Shown in pieces: positions 18,065 through 52,198 of a stretch of 64,000 nucleotides of DNA (positions are counted from its first letter, which is position 1; the number at the start of each line of letters is the position of its first letter). The notes beneath the pieces are model-generated. The model did no database searches. It was given only the letters and a program-made list of their open reading frames with translations, and had not been told where the DNA came from. A program made the position numbers and the translations under genes. This DNA comes from Escherichia coli (GTDB lineage Bacteria > Pseudomonadota > Gammaproteobacteria > Enterobacterales > Enterobacteriaceae). The stretch lies in assembly GCF_016026235.1 (NCBI RefSeq), contig NZ_CP065613.1, one strand, 5' to 3'.

Positions 18065-19252
18065 ATGAACTTATCCCTACGACGCTCTACCAGCGCCCTT
18101 CTTGCCTCGTCGTTGTTATTAACCATCGGACGCGGCGCTACGCTGCCATTTATGACCATTTACTTGAGTCGCCAGTACAGCCTGAGTGTCGATCTAATCG
18201 GTTATGCGATGACAATTGCGCTCACTATTGGCGTCGTTTTTAGCCTCGGTTTTGGTATCCTGGCGGATAAGTTCGACAAGAAACGCTATATGTTACTGGC
18301 AATTACCGCCTTCGCCAGCGGTTTTATTGCCATTCCTTTAGTGAATAACGTAACGCTGGTGGTGCTCTTTTTTGCCCTCATTAACTGCGCCTATTCTGTT
18401 TTTGCTACCGTGCTGAAAGCCTGGTTTGCCGACAATCTTTCGTCCACCAGCAAAACGAAAATCTTCTCAATCAACTACACCATGCTAATCATTGGCTGGA
18501 CCATCGGTCCGCCGCTCGGCACGCTGTTGGTGATGCAGAGCATCAATCTGCCCTTCTGGCTGGCAGCTATCTGTTCCGCGTTTCCCATGCTTTTCATTCA
18601 AATTTGGGTAAAGCGCAGCGAGAAAATCATCGCCACGGAAACAGGCAGTGTCTGGTCGCCGAAAGTTTTATTACAAGATAAAGCACTGTTGTGGTTTACC
18701 TGCTCTGGTTTTCTGGCTTCTTTTGTAAGCGGCGCATTTGCTTCATGCATTTCACAATATGTGATGGTGATTGCTGATGGGGATTTTGCCGAAAAGGTGG
18801 TCGCGGTTGTTCTTCCGGTGAATGCTGCCATGGTGGTTACGTTGCAATATTCCGTGGGCCGCCGACTTAACCCGGCTAACATCCGCGCGCTGATGACAGC
18901 AGGCACCCTCTGTTTCGTCATCGGTCTGGTCGGTTTTATTTTTTCCGGCAACAGCCTGCTATTGTGGGGTATGTCAGCTGCGGTATTTACTGTCGGTGAA
19001 ATCATTTATGCGCCGGGCGAGTATATGTTGATTGACCATATTGCGCCGCCAGGAATGAAAGCCAGCTATTTTTCCGCCCAGTCTTTAGGCTGGCTTGGTG
19101 CCGCGATTAACCCATTAGTGAGTGGCGTAGTGCTAACCAGCCTGCCGCCTTCCTCGCTGTTTGTCATCTTAGCGTTGGTGATCATTGCTGCGTGGGTGCT
19201 GATGTTAAAAGGGATTCGTGCAAGACCGTGGGGGCAGCCCGCGCTTTGTTGA
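18065..19252 (+). CDS. ydeE: MFS transporter YdeE
   Basis: 395-aa 12-TM-type ORF. Confidence 0.85.
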   Translation: MNLSLRRSTSALLASSLLLTIGRGATLPFMTIYLSRQYSLSVDLIGYAMTIALTIGVVFSLGFGILADKFDKKRYMLLAITAFASGFIAIPLVNNVTLVVLFFALINCAYSVFATVLKAWFADNLSSTSKTKIFSINYTMLIIGWTIGPPLGTLLVMQSINLPFWLAAICSAFPMLFIQIWVKRSEKIIATETGSVWSPKVLLQDKALLWFTCSGFLASFVSGAFASCISQYVMVIADGDFAEKVVAVVLPVNAAMVVTLQYSVGRRLNPANIRALMTAGTLCFVIGLVGFIFSGNSLLLWGMSAAVFTVGEIIYAPGEYMLIDHIAPPGMKASYFSAQSLGWLGAAINPLVSGVVLTSLPPSSLFVILALVIIAAWVLMLKGIRARPWGQPALC

Positions 19253-30042: not shown

Positions 30043-30358
30043 TATAATAAACTTACTTTTTTATCATTTTTCCACTTTAACAACATTTTGCTCCACTTTT
30101 CCACGACCAAACAACTTGAAATCTGGTTAAAATAACACGCAACACTATTCTTCTTCCTTGAGTCCGCCCGGAACTCGAAAAACAAACCGAGTTAAAGCCA
30201 TTTTTCACAAAATCGATTTTGGGTCTCACCAAAATTACGGGGTTGCATACGCATTCGTTTATTTTCGAACGTGTACATACAAATATGCACAAAAATAATC
30301 ATAATTATTTTCTGAGATGCATTATGATATGAACACCAATTTCGTATAGAGTCTCACT

Positions 30359-30949
30359 ATGTCTCGAATTTTTGCTTACTGTCGGATATCAACGCTGGAT
30401 CAGACCACCGAAAATCAACGCCGGGAAATCGAAAGTGCAGGTTTTAAAATCAAACCTCAGCAAATAATCGAAGAACACATTAGCGGCTCAGCAGCAACCA
30501 GTGAGCGTCCTGGTTTTAACCGGTTGCTTGCTCGCCTGAAATGTGGTGATCAATTGATTGTGACAAAACTGGATCGCCTTGGTTGTAATGCAATGGATAT
30601 CAGGAAAACAGTGGAACAACTGACCGAAACAGGTATCAGAGTGCATTGCTTAGCATTGGGTGGCATTGACCTGACCAGTCCAACAGGAAAAATGATGATG
30701 CAAGTAATTTCAGCAGTCGCTGAATTTGAACGAGACCTTTTACTTGAACGCACTCATTCCGGGATAGTAAGAGCCCGCGGCGCAGGGAAACGTTTTGGTC
30801 GACCACCTGTGTTAAATGAAGAACAGAAACAGGTGGTATTCGAACGAATTAAGTCAGGTGTAAGTATAAGTGCCATTGCCCGGGAATTCAAAACCTCGCG
30901 GCAAACCATTTTAAGAGCCAAAGCAAAACTTCAGACACCTGACATATAA
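30359..30949 (+). CDS. pinQ: Serine-recombinase DNA invertase Pin (Gin/Hin/Cin family)
   Basis: 196-aa [23 protein letters not shown]... with catalytic Ser in the RIS motif and C-terminal HTH. Confidence 0.9.
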
Positions 30950-31046
30950 AAAATAATCTCGGTGTGAGATGCTTTACGTCTTCCAAGCCCCCTTCCTTGC
31001 CGTAAATGGAAAGATACATCTAATTATAGAATTTATATGTTTTACC

Positions 31047-31622
31047 CTACGGCAGTGCTGGCCATTCAATATCCTGTGCAGTTGACGTATCAACACGGTT
31101 CAGCAATACCCGATACTTTTTCCATGCTTCCAGCAACGAGATTTCTTCCTCCGTTGCAATTTCCAGATCTGCAGCATCCTGAAGCGGCGCAATATGCTCA
31201 CTGGCTACCTGCATCAGGTTGTTTTTTGTTTCTTCCGCCTCCCGGATCCGGAACAGTTTTTCTGCTTCCGTATCCTTCACCCAGGCTGTGCCGTTCCACT
31301 TCTGAAACTCCCCTTCCGGCGATAACCAGGTAACATTTTCCGGTAACGGACCGAGTTCAGAAATAAATAACGCGTCGCCGGAAGCCACGTCATAAACCGT
31401 TTTACCCCGATGATCTTCAACGAGATGCCACGATGACTCATCACTGTTGAAAACAGCCACGAAGCCAGCCGGAATATCTGGCGGTGCAATATCGGTACTG
31501 TTTGCTGGCAGACCTGTATGAGGCGGAATATATGCATCACCTTCACCAATAAATTCATTAGTTCCGGCCAGCAGATTATAAATTTTTATGGTCCGTGGTT
31601 GTTCACTCATTCTGAATGCCAT
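31047..31622 (-). CDS. tfaQ: Tail fiber assembly protein Tfa
   Basis: 191-aa ORF directly downstream of the stf C-terminal segment. Confidence 0.85.
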
Positions 31623-34600
31623 TATGCAAGCCTCACAATATAGTTAAATGCGATGTTTTTGACGGTGTTTTCCGCGTTACCAGCAGCGTTAACGGTGATG
31701 GTGTGTCCATGTGAACCAATCGCAACGGAGTGCGTATGAGCACCAATACCGACAGTATGCGCGTGTGCACCTGCAGATGCTGCTGTGCCGGACAGTGAGT
31801 GGCTATGATTACCATCTGTACTGGTATTAGCTAACCACCCCGTAGACATACCTACTGAGCCTTGTACACCCCAGGTATTTTGACCTGAGCTTGTATAACC
31901 ATATTGATAAGTATCTTTAAAAACACTGGGGTTAAATCGACGGCCATCTCTATGGCTGTGATTACCAGCTGCATTCGTGCTGCCACTTAAACTATGGGTA
32001 TGCGCACCAGTGTTATTCGTGGATTTAGTGCCGTAATCAAACGACGATGTGGTTTTCGTCCCCAAATCCGTACTGGATGCGCTGGCGCTGTGGGTATGCG
32101 ATTTAATGCCGTCCTATTCCTGAGACAATACGGCCCGACCACTGGTAGGTTTGCCCTTAATCGTCCAGCCACGCATATCAGGGATCACGCCTGACGGATA
32201 AGCCGCTGCAAGTTTCGGGTATGCAGATTTGTCAAAAGTCTGCCCCTGCATCAGGGCATAGCCAGACGGAACGGTATCTGATGGCCACGGGATTGGTGCA
32301 CCGACTGGATAAAACTCTGCAGGAGGATGAGCCGAGGTGTAAAGCTGCGCCCACGGCGACCAGTTTGCGTCGGTCGTATCCCGTCGTGAACGAATAAATG
32401 CCGGAGCATGAGCACCGCTTGTACCACTCCAGCCGATGAGTAACTCACCTTCGCCAACGGCTGTCATCCCTTTCAGGTGAATGATATTTCCATACGCTGT
32501 TGGATATCCGTTGTTATACACCTCGTATAACTCAAGACCTGTTGCCCCCTGCGTATTGTCTGTCAGCGCGGTTACCCGACCTTTTGAAGACAGATTAACT
32601 GATGATACTGCTGTTCCACCTGACGGTAACGCCCCGATCTCTGATGCCGTTGGCTTATTTCTGGAGTTATAGTCCCTTCGCCAGCCAGGTGAATAATCTG
32701 TTCCGTGATTAATATAGGTAAACTGGGCGTTAGTTGTTCCACCACCAGTGGAGGTGGTCGGTGTGGTAATGCGGATCGTCATCGCTGACTTTATCCCCAT
32801 TACTTCAATGACAGCTCCGGCGAGATGAATATTACCGCAGTCAGTATCAGTAATGATTTTATTATTGCCATAAGACCAGGAACCCTTGCACATCCAGTAG
32901 GGATGGTTAAATGCTCCCTGAGAATCCAGCCACTCGATAAACTGTGCAGTCGTCCAGTTTCCTGTTATTGTGCTTACTGACCCACCAAAGGCACGGCAGG
33001 CACCAATATTTTTCGTAAAGGTGTCTTTGCCAGGGATATCCGCACCGTTCTGATCTTTCTGCAGACGTTTCTCAGCATTGTCATAGGCTGTTTTTACTGC
33101 CTTTGGTGTCGCGGCAAGCGTTTCAGACGTGCTGTTGGTCGCGCTGCTTAGCTGGATTATCCCTTTCTGTGCTGTCGTTGCATCCTGTGCGGTGTATTTC
33201 CCGTTAGCCAGGTCATACGCGGCCTTAACGGCTTTTGGTGTTGCCGCCAGTGACTCGGAAGTGCTGTTAGTCGCACTACTGAGCTGTACTATCCCCTTTT
33301 TCGTCGTGCTCGCATCCTCAAGCGCCACAGCGGATGCAATATCCTCTGCCCGTTTTGCTGCTGTCTCGGCGCGCGTTGCTGCGGATTCTGCCGTACTCTT
33401 GCTCTGTGCTGCCGCCGTCGCACTGCCAGCAGCCTCTGTTGCCTTCGTGGATGCCGTCGTGGCGCTGCCCTTCGCTGCTGACGCTTGTCTGGTCGCCTCA
33501 TCTTTTGAAGCAGACGCCGATGAGGCCGATGACGCCGCCGAACTGGCGGACGATGCGGCAGCCGTTTTTGAGGATTCTGCGCTGGTTTCCGACGCTTTCG
33601 CGTTCGTTTCGGATGTCTTCGCTGCGGAAGCTGACCTCGCTGCTGCGCTGGCCTGTTCAGTGGCTTCGCCAGCCTTCGTTGTGGCTGTTGAAGCGGATGA
33701 TGCGGCGCTTTCTGCCGATTTTCCGGCGGCGATGGCACTGGCTGAGGCCTGCCCGGCACTTGTTGACGCGGCACTGGCAGACGACGCAGCCGCTGTTTTT
33801 GAGCCTGCCGCAGCTGAGGCGCTCTGTCCCGCTGCCGTCTCAGAAGACCTGGCGTTCGTCTCGGACGTTTTTGCCGCCTTCGCGGAATTTGCTGCCGCCG
33901 TTGCCGAGGAAGCTGCGCTACTGGCGCTCGAGGATGCGTTCGTTTCTGATGATTTTGCCGCCTCTTTTGAAGCCGACGCATCCTGGGCTGAGGTGGCAGC
34001 TTCTGACGCTTTCGTAGTCGCGGTGGATGCAGAAGTGGCTGCTGATTGTTGTGACGCTGCAGCATTCGTTTCTGACGTTTTCGCGGCACTGGCACTGGTA
34101 GCTGCCGCGCTTTTTGAGGACTCTGCAGCGGCAGCACTTTTTGATGCTTCAGTGGCCTTTGCTGATGCCGTTCCTGCGCTGGAAGACGCTGACTGAGCCG
34201 ACGACGCGGCCTGTCCGGCTGACGTGCTGGCTGCGCGTGCTAAGCCTGCAGCATCAGTTGCATGGGTTGCCGCCTCACGGGCTGATGTGCCGGCATCGCT
34301 GGCTGACTTCTTCGCGGCTGCTGTGTTCTGTGCCACCGCGGACGCGTTACGCGCCACCTCTTCCACCATCAGTTCAAAACGTCGCAGTGCCTCCGGACGG
34401 GCATCATCCTCCGTCATGGCACCGAGAAAATCATTCAGCGTACCGGGTTGAGAATCTTCATACACGGTGATGGTCCCGGCATGTGACGGCGGGAATCCTT
34501 CCACCAACAGAATAACGCTGTACTGACCGTACTCAACGTCCATGCTGTAACGCCCGGCTTCATCCGGATTTTCTGAGGCCAGCGTGTTCACCACCACCGC

Positions 34601-34693
34601 GGTGCTGTTACGTTTTGCTTTCAGCTGGATTGTGCAGTTCTGTACCGGTTTTCCTGTGCCGTCTTTCAGTACACCTGAAATCTTTACTGCCAT
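31622..34693 (-). pseudogene. stfQ: Side tail fiber Stf, interrupted by an in-frame amber codon at 32114-32116
   Basis: 873-aa ORF (lambda-Stf-like [26 protein letters not shown]... start at 34693) and a 147-aa ORF with His-rich tail-fiber repeats share one frame, separated only by TAG. Confidence 0.7.
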
Positions 34694-34756
34694 ATTCACC
34701 CCACAAAAAGCCCGCCTGAACCAGCGGGCTGTCATAACACTGTGTTACCTGGCTAA

Positions 34757-35356
34757 TCAGAACTTATAACCGACACCCACGATGAAACCGTCAGTGCGCC
34801 AGTCGCCACTGCCGGAACCTTCATAAGCAAGGTCAATGGCCACGGATTCGGTCGGGTTAAACTGCACGCCAGCTCCCCACGCCAGAGACGTGTTGCTGTG
34901 GCGACCGTCATCACTTCCGGTCAGCACGTCGTGCGTTTTCCCCTTGTTGTCAGTTACGCGGAGATAATCCCCGGAGAAAGTCGACACACGGCTGTAAGCC
35001 ATACCCGCCATCGCATACGCGCTGAACCATTCATTCACGCGCACAGACGGCCCCACCATCACGCTGAACCAGCGGTTACGCACGGAATCTTCATGCCAGC
35101 GGGTATCGCTGTAACGGGTAAGCTGGCGATTCTTGTCTCCTGCATAGCTGAATGACGTCACCAGCCCCAGTGTGTCCGTAAACTCATAACGGTATTTCAC
35201 GTTAATCCCGTTAAGATCATCGCTGCCGGGAACGTTCGTCGAGGCATGAAGATACCCCGCGCTCAGCGTGGACTGATGTTCAGATGCCCATGCAGGCGCA
35301 CCGGATACGGCCAGACAAATGGCTGCGGACAAAATGGCGGCATAAAGTTTACGCAT
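34757..35356 (-). CDS. lom: Lom-like outer-membrane protein (Ail/Lom/OmpX family)
   Basis: 199-aa ORF with signal peptide and beta-barrel pattern, ending ...VGVGYKF. Confidence 0.85.
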
Positions 35357-35425: not shown

Positions 35426-38838
<3,413 letters not shown>

Positions 38839-45037: not shown

Positions 45038-45669
45038 TTAACCTGCGGCGCTGACAGCCACCGTAGCCACTGCCACAAAATCGCCGTCAGAAGTCATGCC
45101 CACAATGCTGACACTGCCCTGCTTCACGCCTTTCACCGTGGCAGTCTGTGGATCTGTCGAATGCACACTGATCGCTTTGTCACTGGCTCCGTCAGGTTTT
45201 ACTGTAAAGGTCAGCGTGGTGGTTGCTCCCGCTTTGACACTGGCAGATGCCGGTGCCATCGTCAGCCCGGTAACGCCCACGATTTCAGTGCCTTCCTCTG
45301 CCAGATACGGAAAACATCAACAGTACCGTTGGGATATTTGATACGAAAAGCGCAGACTTCACCGGAGTCGAACAACTGAACCAGTTTTTTCTGCCCGCTG
45401 TCCCCCGGACGCCAGGCCAGCGTCGCCGAAGTATCACCGACTGATTTCTGCCCCTGGGTTGTCGTTTTCCAGTCTGCATCTTCATCATCGAGATAAGTGT
45501 CATCTTCTGCATCAGCGGTCATTTCGCCAGGTTGCAGATCCTTCACCATCGCAAGACGCAGCCAGTCAGTGTCCGATAAAGGGTTCGCAAACGCATCGCC
45601 CTTGCCGGTATACATCCAGAACGTCGTTCCCGCACCTTTCGTTTTTGCCAGTGGATTTGGTGTGGTCAT
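45038..45669 (-). pseudogene. Major tail protein V, disrupted by an out-of-frame internal deletion
   Basis: N-terminal part ([18 protein letters not shown]...VDVFR, then 14 out-of-frame codons and stop at 45262) and C-terminal Ig-like part (...[25 protein letters not shown]...) lie in different frames; about 30 codons present in lambda V are absent. Confidence 0.65.
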
Positions 45670-45679
45670 TACCACCTCC

Positions 45680-46081
45680 TTAATTCGTGTACGTGATCTG
45701 GTACGTGATTTCCGCCATCGCCCAGGTGGCCATCTCATTATCACGTTGATAGTTAAAACCGAGTGGGATCAGGGTGTCGATGAGTCCGGAAAGTGCTGGT
45801 ACATCATTCAGGGCCGGGAAAATGGTGCTCTCCATCCACATATCCAGCTCTGAATCCGGTGCCTGTGCCCGGATGAAGACAGCAATATGCAGAACAGCCT
45901 GCCAGTCATCTTCATCCGTCATTTTTCCGGTGTACTGAGCATCACTCAGCCACACCGCCACGGCAGGCAGTTCCTGCGCATCAACAAATGCCGGAAGCCC
46001 GTCAAAAAACGTGGCGCTGTCTCCACACTGTTCCCGAAGGCGTGCCAGTACGACCTGGCGGATTTGTGTATGTCGGTTCAT
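45680..46081 (-). CDS. Minor tail protein U (lambda gpU-like)
   Basis: ORF 45680-46093; start MNRHTQIR... at 46081, overlapping the Z stop (ATGA). Confidence 0.85.
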
Positions 46082-49057: not shown

Positions 49058-49100
49058 TGAGGTGTACTGGCAATAGCGGACACTACCATTTGTTCTTTTT

Positions 49101-49919
49101 TTAAGCAGCCATCTGATGATATTTTTCCCTGAAGGCTGCCGGGGAGATATTCCCCAGACGAGAGTGACGACGCTGACGATTGTAGAAAATCTCAATGTAT
49201 TCCCGTATTACTGAGATGGCTTCATCCCGGTTATTAAAACGATAGTGGCTCAGGCTCTCATTTTTCAGCGTTCCCCAGAAGCTTTCCATCGGAGCGTTGT
49301 CGTAACAGTTACCTTTACGCGACATTGATGTTTTCAGACCAAACTGCTCCTGTATGACCCGGTAATCGTATGCGCAGTACTGTGAACCTCGATCAGAGTG
49401 GTGGATTAGCCCGGCAGGTGGGCGCTGGCTCCTGAGCGCCATAAACAGGGCTTTACCTGTCAGCTCTTTTGTCATGCGCTCTCCCATGGCGTAGCCGACA
49501 ATTTCGCACGTATAAACATCTTTGATGCCAGCGAGGTACAACCATCCCTCCTGTGTGGCAACATACGTCAGGTCCGCCACCCAGACCTGATTTGGTGCTG
49601 TAGGAGCGAACGTCTGGTTCAGCAGATTTGGCGCAACTGGCAGATTGTGGTTCGGGTTCGTAGTCGCTCTGAACTTGCGTTTCTGCTTACAGCGTAGCCT
49701 TAGCTCCTTACGAAGACGTGCCAGTCGGTCACGACCAACGATGATGCCATTCTCTGCCAGCTCCGTCTGGAGCCGCCGGGTTCCATATGTTTCGCGAGTG
49801 CGGATATGTGCCACCTTAATCTCCAGTTTTAGCCGCTCATCACTTTGTTTTCTGTCTGAGGGTTCATGCTGTACCCAGTTGTAATAACCGCTCCTGGATA
49901 CACCAAATACCTGACACAT
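49101..49919 (-). CDS. IS3-family transposase OrfB (DDE integrase domain); normally expressed as an OrfAB fusion
   Basis: 272-aa ORF with ...HHSDRGSQY... and ...GNCYDNAPMESFW... motifs. Confidence 0.85.
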   Translation of the reverse strand: MCQVFGVSRSGYYNWVQHEPSDRKQSDERLKLEIKVAHIRTRETYGTRRLQTELAENGIIVGRDRLARLRKELRLRCKQKRKFRATTNPNHNLPVAPNLLNQTFAPTAPNQVWVADLTYVATQEGWLYLAGIKDVYTCEIVGYAMGERMTKELTGKALFMALRSQRPPAGLIHHSDRGSQYCAYDYRVIQEQFGLKTSMSRKGNCYDNAPMESFWGTLKNESLSHYRFNNRDEAISVIREYIEIFYNRQRRHSRLGNISPAAFREKYHQMAA

Positions 49920-49954
49920 CGCTTCAATGGGAAATTGTTGTCGCCATTGTTCGA

Positions 49955-50257
49955 TTAACGCGTATTTTTCAGCGACTCCTGTGCAAAATACGCTGTTGCT
50001 TTTTTTAATATATCTCGCTCAAGGCGAGCTTCATTTAACGCCTTACGCAGTTGCAGAATTTCAGATTCCAGTTCAGCCACCGTGCGGGAGCCAGGAGTAC
50101 CGAGCCCTTTTCTGGCGGCGGTAACCCATTGTCCTAAAGTGCCTTCAGGAAGGGATAATCGGGAAGCGCCTTCACTGATCGAAAGTTGATTTTCAAGAAC
50201 CGTTCTGACAGCTTCGGCTTTGAACTCTTTAGAGTAACGTTGGGTTTTTCTGCTCAT
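49955..50257 (-). CDS. IS3-family transposase OrfA (HTH, leucine zipper)
   Basis: 100-aa ORF MSRKTQRYSKEFKAEAVR...; ends ...LKKATAYFAQESLKNTR with the A7G run (plus 49998-50005) at the LKK codons. Confidence 0.85.
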   Translation of the reverse strand: MSRKTQRYSKEFKAEAVRTVLENQLSISEGASRLSLPEGTLGQWVTAARKGLGTPGSRTVAELESEILQLRKALNEARLERDILKKATAYFAQESLKNTR

Positions 50258-50439
50258 TATTAGCTCCTTCTGATGCCATTCTATTTCAGGAAGGAGTGTC
50301 CGTTAAACTCAGGCTACCTCAGTTTTCCCTGACTCTTACGCCTTTATAAACAAACCAGATACGTAATTTCCCTCCATGGCTTTCCACGCCTGTCGGATAT
50401 TTCATTTCAATTTCTCTCATTAGTTAGTGTGGCTTTTAG

Positions 50440-50904: not shown

Positions 50905-52198
50905 CTGAGGAATCCCCAGAAAACAAGACAGGCATAGTGAGATGTGATCTAATTGATTGTGCTAACAATTTCAAGGAGATCACCACTATGCCTGCACGTT
51001 CATTATGCCAAAATTTCCTTAACAACATACTGGCCCCTTTGCATCTTTACCGTCAAAAATCACTGATTGACGCAACTAATGCTGTAATAAATGGCGCTTC
51101 CCTCACACTTACCAGTATCGGGCGTCATTTAACCGGTACGGCATCAGTTAAAAACAAAATAAAGCGGGTGGATCGACTGTTGGGGAATCGACATTTGCAA
51201 AATGAGGTTTCCACCATTTTTCAGCGAATTACCCAAAAGATTACGCGGGGAATGTCTCGTGTTGTGATACTCATTGACTGGAGTGCTTATCATGCCTCTC
51301 GTTTTCAGCTTTTGCGGGCAAGCCTGGCATGTGACGGGCGTTCTTTACCGTTGATGAGTTGTGTCGTTCCATCATCACAGACAGCGAATGCAGATGTACA
51401 TGAGCGTTTTCTGGAATCGCTTGCTGAGTGCTTTTCCCCCGGGACTGATGTCATTGTTATTACAGATGCCGGTTTTCAGGGGCGATGGTTCCAACAGCTC
51501 CGCTCCCGTGGCTGGACCTATATTTGCCGGGTACTGGGCAATCATTATTACAATGTTGGTAATGGCTGGGAAAAGGTGTCGGACTCAGGCACAAAAGCAT
51601 CAACGACAGCAATTTATTTAGGTGAAGGCCTGCTGGGTCGAGATAAAAATGCACAACATGAAGGGCATTTTTATCTTTATAAAAGTAAGCCTAAAGGTCG
51701 TAGATTTAAACGCTCGAAGGAAAGAGCAACCAGACCATCGGTGACGGCTAAAGCTCGTACTGCCGGGAAATCACCATGGTTTATTTTCACAAACAGTACT
51801 GAGTTCTCGCCAAAACAGGTAATGAAATTATACAGCCGTAGAATGCAAATTGAGCAAAATTTCAGGGATGAAAAAAATCCTCGCTGGGGATTTGGACTAC
51901 GGTTTGGTGCCAGTCATTCATCCGGGCGGGTCACGGTATTGAGTCTGATCGCAACATTAGCCAGTATCATTATGTGGTTAAGCGGTTTCAGCCTGGAAAA
52001 CAAAGGGATACATCATAAATATCAGGCAAATACAGTGAAGCACAGGCGAGTCATCTCGTTATTAAAACTGGCGGAGAATGTGATTCGACATTCTCCACTC
52101 ATACTAAACACACTGTCACTTGACGCAGGGCTGAAAGTTCTACAGCAACGGTATACCAATATGATAATGGTTTACTAAATTTTCTGGGGATCCCTCAG
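50905..52198 (+). mobile_element. IS4-family (IS10-like) insertion sequence with 18-bp terminal inverted repeats CTGAGG(A/G)ATCCCCAGAAA
   Basis: Left end 50905-50922 CTGAGGAATCCCCAGAAA; right end 52181-52198 reverse-complements to CTGAGGGATCCCCAGAAA (17/18); single transposase ORF. Confidence 0.75.
50988..52178 (+). CDS. IS4-family DDE transposase (IS10-like); start at MPARSL preceded by AAGGAG
   Basis: ORF 50937-52178; YREK signature (Y-x2-R-x3-E-x6-K in YSRRMQIEQNFRDEK); segments resembling the IS10 transposase as recalled (IKRVDRLLGNRHL, ITDAGF, YQANTV). Confidence 0.8.
   Translation: MPARSLCQNFLNNILAPLHLYRQKSLIDATNAVINGASLTLTSIGRHLTGTASVKNKIKRVDRLLGNRHLQNEVSTIFQRITQKITRGMSRVVILIDWSAYHASRFQLLRASLACDGRSLPLMSCVVPSSQTANADVHERFLESLAECFSPGTDVIVITDAGFQGRWFQQLRSRGWTYICRVLGNHYYNVGNGWEKVSDSGTKASTTAIYLGEGLLGRDKNAQHEGHFYLYKSKPKGRRFKRSKERATRPSVTAKARTAGKSPWFIFTNSTEFSPKQVMKLYSRRMQIEQNFRDEKNPRWGFGLRFGASHSSGRVTVLSLIATLASIIMWLSGFSLENKGIHHKYQANTVKHRRVISLLKLAENVIRHSPLILNTLSLDAGLKVLQQRYTNMIMVY

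Follow-up and report, generated by a model that had tools for sequence, protein, structure and literature searches.

In laboratory lambda PaPa, the side fibers of Ur-lambda are abolished by a frameshift in stf (PMC12617516). Side fibers speed adsorption via OmpC and are dispensable in viable lambdoid phages (PMC12617516). For T4 gp37, the collar fold (D10) is made up of residues 811-881 plus 1010-1026, and D11 (residues 882-1009) comprises a needle with seven His-coordinated iron ions together with the receptor-binding tip (PMC6957217). The iron-binding histidines of gp37 are essential and are critical to folding and function (PMC6957217).

Here, an stf gene carrying a premature amber codon was analyzed in a 64-kb stretch of Escherichia coli DNA (the window, to which all coordinates refer unless another sequence is named). 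The codon very probably represents a genuine, inherited, recent and neutral nonsense mutation (CAG, Gln860, to TAG) in the stf of a defective lambdoid prophage at the Qin site.

Position and reading frame of the amber codon

From the sequence and alignments, the premature TAG was located at 32114-32116 on the minus strand; the ancestral codon is CAG, which encodes Gln860 in the 1023-aa Stf. The gene-strand TAG at 32116-32114 reads cta on the plus strand; the mutation lies at window 32116, where the gene strand has T and the plus strand A. The upstream ORF was listed mechanically by the ORF lister at 32114-34735 (873 aa). Homologues and the PF08400 domain begin at MAVKISG (window 34693), so the first 14 codons of this ORF are spurious and 859 sense codons precede the TAG; on homologue starts and Pfam, the 5' part of stf was assigned to 32117-34693 on the minus strand. 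On the 3' side of the TAG, the same frame holds 163 sense codons and is free of stops until the natural TAA (31624-31622). This part, now untranslated, spans 31622-32113 on the minus strand, and the 147-codon ORF is the portion of it counted from the first TTG (32065), 16 codons past the TAG.

The original prediction, that stf carries a single in-frame TAG between the 873-codon ORF and a downstream ORF, was confirmed by reading of the frame and by the 1023-aa homologues. Its placing of the 873-codon and 147-codon ORFs in one frame stood as well, with the real parts measuring 859 codons (after removal of the 14 spurious ones) and 163 codons. Because 859 + 1 + 163 matches exactly the 1023-aa length of intact homologues, and the 1101-bp region around the site differs only at 32116 (see below), the split frame is not a chance arrangement. 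The frame that runs uninterrupted in a functional Stf gene is broken here by TAG at codon 860, so the locus belongs to the family as a pseudogene. In annotation, the 873-aa and 147-aa ORFs are best joined into a single stf pseudogene instead of being called as separate genes.

The stf shaft (window 33100-34300, codons ~130-480) is long, Ala/Ser/Thr-rich and internally repetitive. It yields long spurious ORFs, e.g., at 33129-34196 on the plus strand (355 aa) and at 33289-34137 on the minus strand (282 aa), which gene callers should disregard.

Ancestral codon and age of the lesion

A 1101-bp query around the site matched 28 complete genomes at 99.9% identity. When it was aligned to one of these 28 relatives (L001), the sole mismatch across the 1101 bp was window 32116, T versus C. 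The codon at the site is CAG in three E. coli chromosomes (L001, L002 and L009), in K-12 stfR (L008) and in the functional phage mEp460_ev081 (L010). The CAG-to-TAG change, first proposed by comparison with K-12 StfR, was thus borne out: the local StfR protein sequence is as given in that comparison, and CAG is the codon in all five of these sequences. The change is a C-to-T transition on the coding strand turning Gln860 CAG into TAG. Deamination at a Dcm site, the classic hot-spot route from CAG to TAG, was rejected, the ancestral context being AACAGG and not CCAGG.

Intact relatives annotate stf as one CDS of 1023 aa (1120 aa in StfR) followed by tfa, and 304 phage records span the tip-module site in one piece. 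In the alignment with intact homologues, none ended at the site with a separate downstream gene; RefSeq genomes and the functional phage carry single 1023-aa CDSs. Recurrent independent lesions at the site were considered and rejected, as the 147-aa ORF in two other assemblies was traced to a run of Ns in one case and to a 646-bp contig end beside IS1 in the other.

No nucleotide differs between the window and three intact relatives over the 492 nt 3' of the TAG, and for this reason the lesion is taken to be recent. An unchanged downstream stretch would be predicted by a recent lesion and would be compatible with continued use too. The locus shows each feature looked for in a recent pseudogene: a single-base difference, a frame kept downstream, restriction to one lineage and other lesions in the same element.

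Domain architecture and predicted product

Stf begins with the PF08400 N-terminal tail-attachment domain (residues 1-134, E=3e-71, Pfam), which is followed by an Ala/Ser-rich shaft, two Phage_fiber_2 repeats and a Pfam Collar domain (798-845). The C-terminal 230 residues of the read-through translation (Stf 794-1023) match the T4 gp37 tip structure 2XGF (E=1e-85), and this gp37-like collar and His-x-His needle C-terminus is encoded in the same frame as the PF08400 N-terminus. In the 2XGF alignment, the TAG falls at gp37 A877 and the first His-x-His (HTH) lies 5 codons later. The part that is left untranslated corresponds to the His-x-His needle and tip (the D11 homologue) plus the last D10 strands. 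The claim that the receptor-binding end of the fiber is cut off therefore holds, given the 2XGF match and a stop placed 5 residues before the needle/tip domain D11.

Translation would end once the first segment of the collar-fold domain has been made, giving a product that retains the tail-attachment domain and the shaft. Missing from it would be the entire His-x-His iron-binding needle, the receptor-binding tip and those C-terminal strands with which the collar is completed. Given what this region does in gp37, the 859-aa fragment would be expected not to work as a fiber. At the 3' end of the gene, the stf TAA overlaps the tfaQ ATG (TAATG), with GAGG 8 nt upstream. To judge from this overlap, tfaQ is probably no longer translationally coupled to stf: ribosomes would miss the TAATG overlap, and tfaQ translation would be left to its own GAGG site.

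Prophage context

The genes flanking the site are ydfJ' (truncated), ynfT, ydfK, pinQ, tfaQ, stf, lom, J, I, K, L, M, H, T, G, V, U and Z. The element is a Qin-site lambdoid prophage (ydfJ/ydfK/pinQ/tfaQ) and not Rac, whose paralogous block in K-12 is stfR-tfaR-pinR-ynaE. The gene order J-lom-stf-tfa is present, as in the lambdoid Stf family. By comparison, the tail fiber assembly gene tfaQ (31047-31622, minus strand) is intact and 100% identical to WP_000885611.1, and the orphan serine invertase gene pinQ (30359-30949, plus strand) is intact and 100% identical to WP_000086527.1. The Ail/Lom outer membrane protein gene lom (34757-35356, minus strand), directly upstream of stf, is also intact. 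In another E. coli assembly (JZNQ01000017.1), an operon with CdtA, CdtB and CdtC domains was observed at 2779-4879, directly downstream of a related stf-tfa pair, which points to a lambdoid prophage that carries cdt and shares the tip module.

Other genes of the element are damaged. The host-specificity gene J (35426-38835, minus strand) is frameshifted in the window only: the C run at 36028-36033 has 4 residues in the window versus 5 in L003, L004, L011, L012 and L013, and the 1136-aa protein of these siblings is split into 948-aa and 171-aa ORFs. Either a -1 frameshift arose here very recently, or the window's assembly contains a homopolymer error. The major tail protein gene V (~45041-45744, minus strand; 247 aa in NZ_CP150019.1) is broken into two frames, with ORFs of ~135 and ~80 aa, through a net loss of roughly 113 nt; the split is also found in L013 and is shared by L011 and L012, which show no indel versus the window there. 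An IS3-family element of 1.26 kb (49061-50321, minus strand; OrfA 49955-50257, 100 aa; OrfB 49101-49919, 272 aa), which we take to be IS600-like, truncates a ClpP-protease/major-capsid fusion gene at window 49060, at residue ~105. It abuts a remnant of the xis region both in the window and in UGFA01000002.1, which have both lost the portal, terminase, lysis and early genes, and an IS4-family transposase follows the remnant (window 50937-52178). The prophage is defective, with its capsid gene truncated by IS3, V frameshifted, and the portal, terminase, lysis and early genes missing. Every chromosomal gene in the window is intact by comparison with the closest annotated genome (L009).

L011 and L012 carry the same IS3 insertion and V lesion but keep the portal and terminase, and L013 and the window have an additional portal-to-xis deletion in common. 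In the likely order of events, the stf TAG, the V lesion and the insertion of IS3 into the capsid gene form a first group, the IS-adjacent deletion comes next, and the J -1 frameshift, if real, comes last. The stf lesion would represent neutral decay in a prophage already without an intact capsid gene and with a frameshifted V. Its biological weight is small, as it adds one more inactivating point mutation to a cryptic prophage without head, lysis and early genes.

Possible read-through and co-option

It is very unlikely that the amber codon is read through, by a suppressor (supE-type tRNA-Gln) or owing to its context, with full-length Stf being made, perhaps at a low or regulated level. A Gln-inserting suppressor would give back the ancestral residue, and the downstream 163 codons are undamaged. 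However, absence of decay there is expected in carriers that have diverged very little, the stop is conserved in no homologue, and the prophage cannot make particles (capsid truncated, V frameshifted, head and lysis genes deleted). No tRNA gene was found within the 64-kb window, and a locally encoded suppressor tRNA was rejected on this ground.

A further possibility, to which extremely little credence is given, is that the clade co-carries an amber suppressor and so produces a full-length fiber, or that the tip-less 859-aa Stf or the uncoupled tfaQ has been co-opted, e.g., against incoming lambdoid phages. A recent neutral nonsense mutation is the preferred reading.

Authenticity and distribution of the allele

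The exact 71-mer with TAG was found at none of the 2,781 places in the 2,277 complete RefSeq E. coli genomes that bear the surrounding 71-mer. This absence, together with the homopolymer difference in J (C4 versus C5), which is suspicious and is not seen in siblings, would fit a sequencing or assembly error in which the true base is C and the gene intact. Such an error is nevertheless extremely unlikely. The TAG is present in at least three other assemblies (GCA_900449985.1, GCA_902503985.1 and GCA_031665325.1), which come from different projects and include a draft, and the change is a substitution and not a homopolymer indel. GCA_900449985.1 (L003/L013; 4.56-Mb contig) and GCA_902503985.1 (L004; 58.5-kb contig) match the window exactly along 11-23 kb except for one indel elsewhere. 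GCA_031665325.1 (L012) belongs to a clearly different genotype: it has 80 substitutions, which cluster in lom and J, and its gene content differs, the terminase and portal genes being retained. The TAG allele is real; random sequencing error is ruled out by assemblies from different projects and of different genotypes.

The exact 873-aa product is on record as STL95641.1, on 4 contigs, and both the sequence and the truncated product are thus already in public databases. The allele is best regarded as a rare clade marker, carried by a handful of assemblies and absent from the complete genomes counted above.

Search for an invertase crossover

The stop had been described as lying at the junction of constant and variable parts of the fiber, where a shufflon crossover was expected. 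Neither claim was upheld. Residue 860 lies inside a conserved block (Stf residues ~796-901, ~106 residues) that StfR shares almost unchanged and that T4 gp37 also conserves strongly; the 71-mer common to the 2,277 genomes is taken from this block. The divergent parts are residues ~567-765 and ~902-960 in comparison with StfR, and the same pattern is seen against T4 gp37. Partial matches in 60 genomes, taken as a spread sample, began at query nt 2156-2446 or 2962 and ended at 392-1607, and none started or ended at the TAG (query 2620-2622); a recurrent mosaic breakpoint was found at query nt 2425, corresponding to codon ~795. The term shufflon is itself inapt, since shufflons use Rci tyrosine recombinases and PinQ is a serine invertase.

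Crossover sites of the Din family (26 bp) were sought by scanning for the core AAACCNNGGTTT, with e14 as positive control. In e14, both pix sites were recovered (CTCTCGAAAACCTTGGTTTGGGAGAA in stfP and TTCTCCCAAACCAACGTTTATGAAAA in stfE). The core was absent at up to 2 mismatches from window 30300-32800 (stf-tfaQ-pinQ), and at two mismatches none was found in K-12 Rac or in phage mEp460_ev081. Over the whole window at up to 1 mismatch, a single match at chance level was obtained, at 18416. No meaningful flanking or long inverted repeats were detected, and a second, oppositely oriented stf'/tfa' cassette is absent, the gap between tfaQ and pinQ being only 97 bp. By homology to StfE, the crossover equivalent to that of e14 would fall 5-13 codons before PVGxPxPWP, at Stf residue ~783-791, ~70 codons upstream of the stop. 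A crossover at the stop itself was rejected on the lack of Din cores and inverted repeats near stf, tfaQ and pinQ. A separately initiated downstream gene was also rejected, as TTG 32065 has no Shine-Dalgarno sequence before it.

A natural two-gene arrangement or Pin crossover junction, with a variable C-terminal cassette that is exchanged and a downstream ORF that is separately initiated, has practically no probability: although pinQ, 1.2 kb away, is an intact serine invertase gene and invertases exchange tail-fiber C-termini in Mu, P1 and e14, no site, repeat or second cassette accompanies stf, the e14-equivalent position is not residue 860, homologues are continuous across the site, the TTG is without a ribosome-binding sequence, and 147-aa ORF calls elsewhere are artefacts of Ns or contig ends.

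The window, K-12 Rac and the functional phage mEp460_ev081 (pin at L010 5366-5956) each have an orphan Pin gene, intact and fully conserved beside stf-tfa and without recognizable sites or a second cassette. A pin gene beside stf-tfa does not by itself mean an invertible segment.

Comparison with known side tail fibers

The invertible segments of the Din family (e14 P, Mu G and P1 C) resemble the window in that a Pin-type serine invertase gene adjoins stf-tfa, and they differ from it in possessing the crossover sites, inverted repeats and alternative cassette that the window lacks. The T4 gp37 tip (2XGF) shares with Stf a collar fold followed by a His-x-His iron-binding needle. In T4, gp37 is part of a myovirus long tail fiber with the chaperones gp38 and gp57A, whereas in Stf the module is carried on a lambdoid shaft with Tfa and is interrupted by the stop at the residue matching gp37 A877.

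K-12 StfR (Rac) and the StfQ/mEp460-type fibers have the same layout as the window's gene, with a PF08400 N-terminus, an Ala/Ser shaft, fiber repeats, collar and HxH needle, and with tfa and then an orphan pin gene following. The local sequence of StfR at the site is identical to the ancestral sequence of the window. Unlike the window's gene, StfR and the StfQ/mEp460-type genes are intact, with the Gln codon CAG, and the middle module (~567-765) and tip insert (~902-960) of StfR differ from those of the window Stf.

The closest precedent is lambda PaPa stf (orf401/orf314), when compared with Ur-lambda. In the window, a nonsense substitution takes the place of the frameshift and is located nearer the 3' end, where collar and needle meet, and the prophage, unlike lambda PaPa, was already unable to make particles. 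The event is of the same kind: in both cases a point lesion removes the distal, gp37-like receptor-binding part of the fiber.
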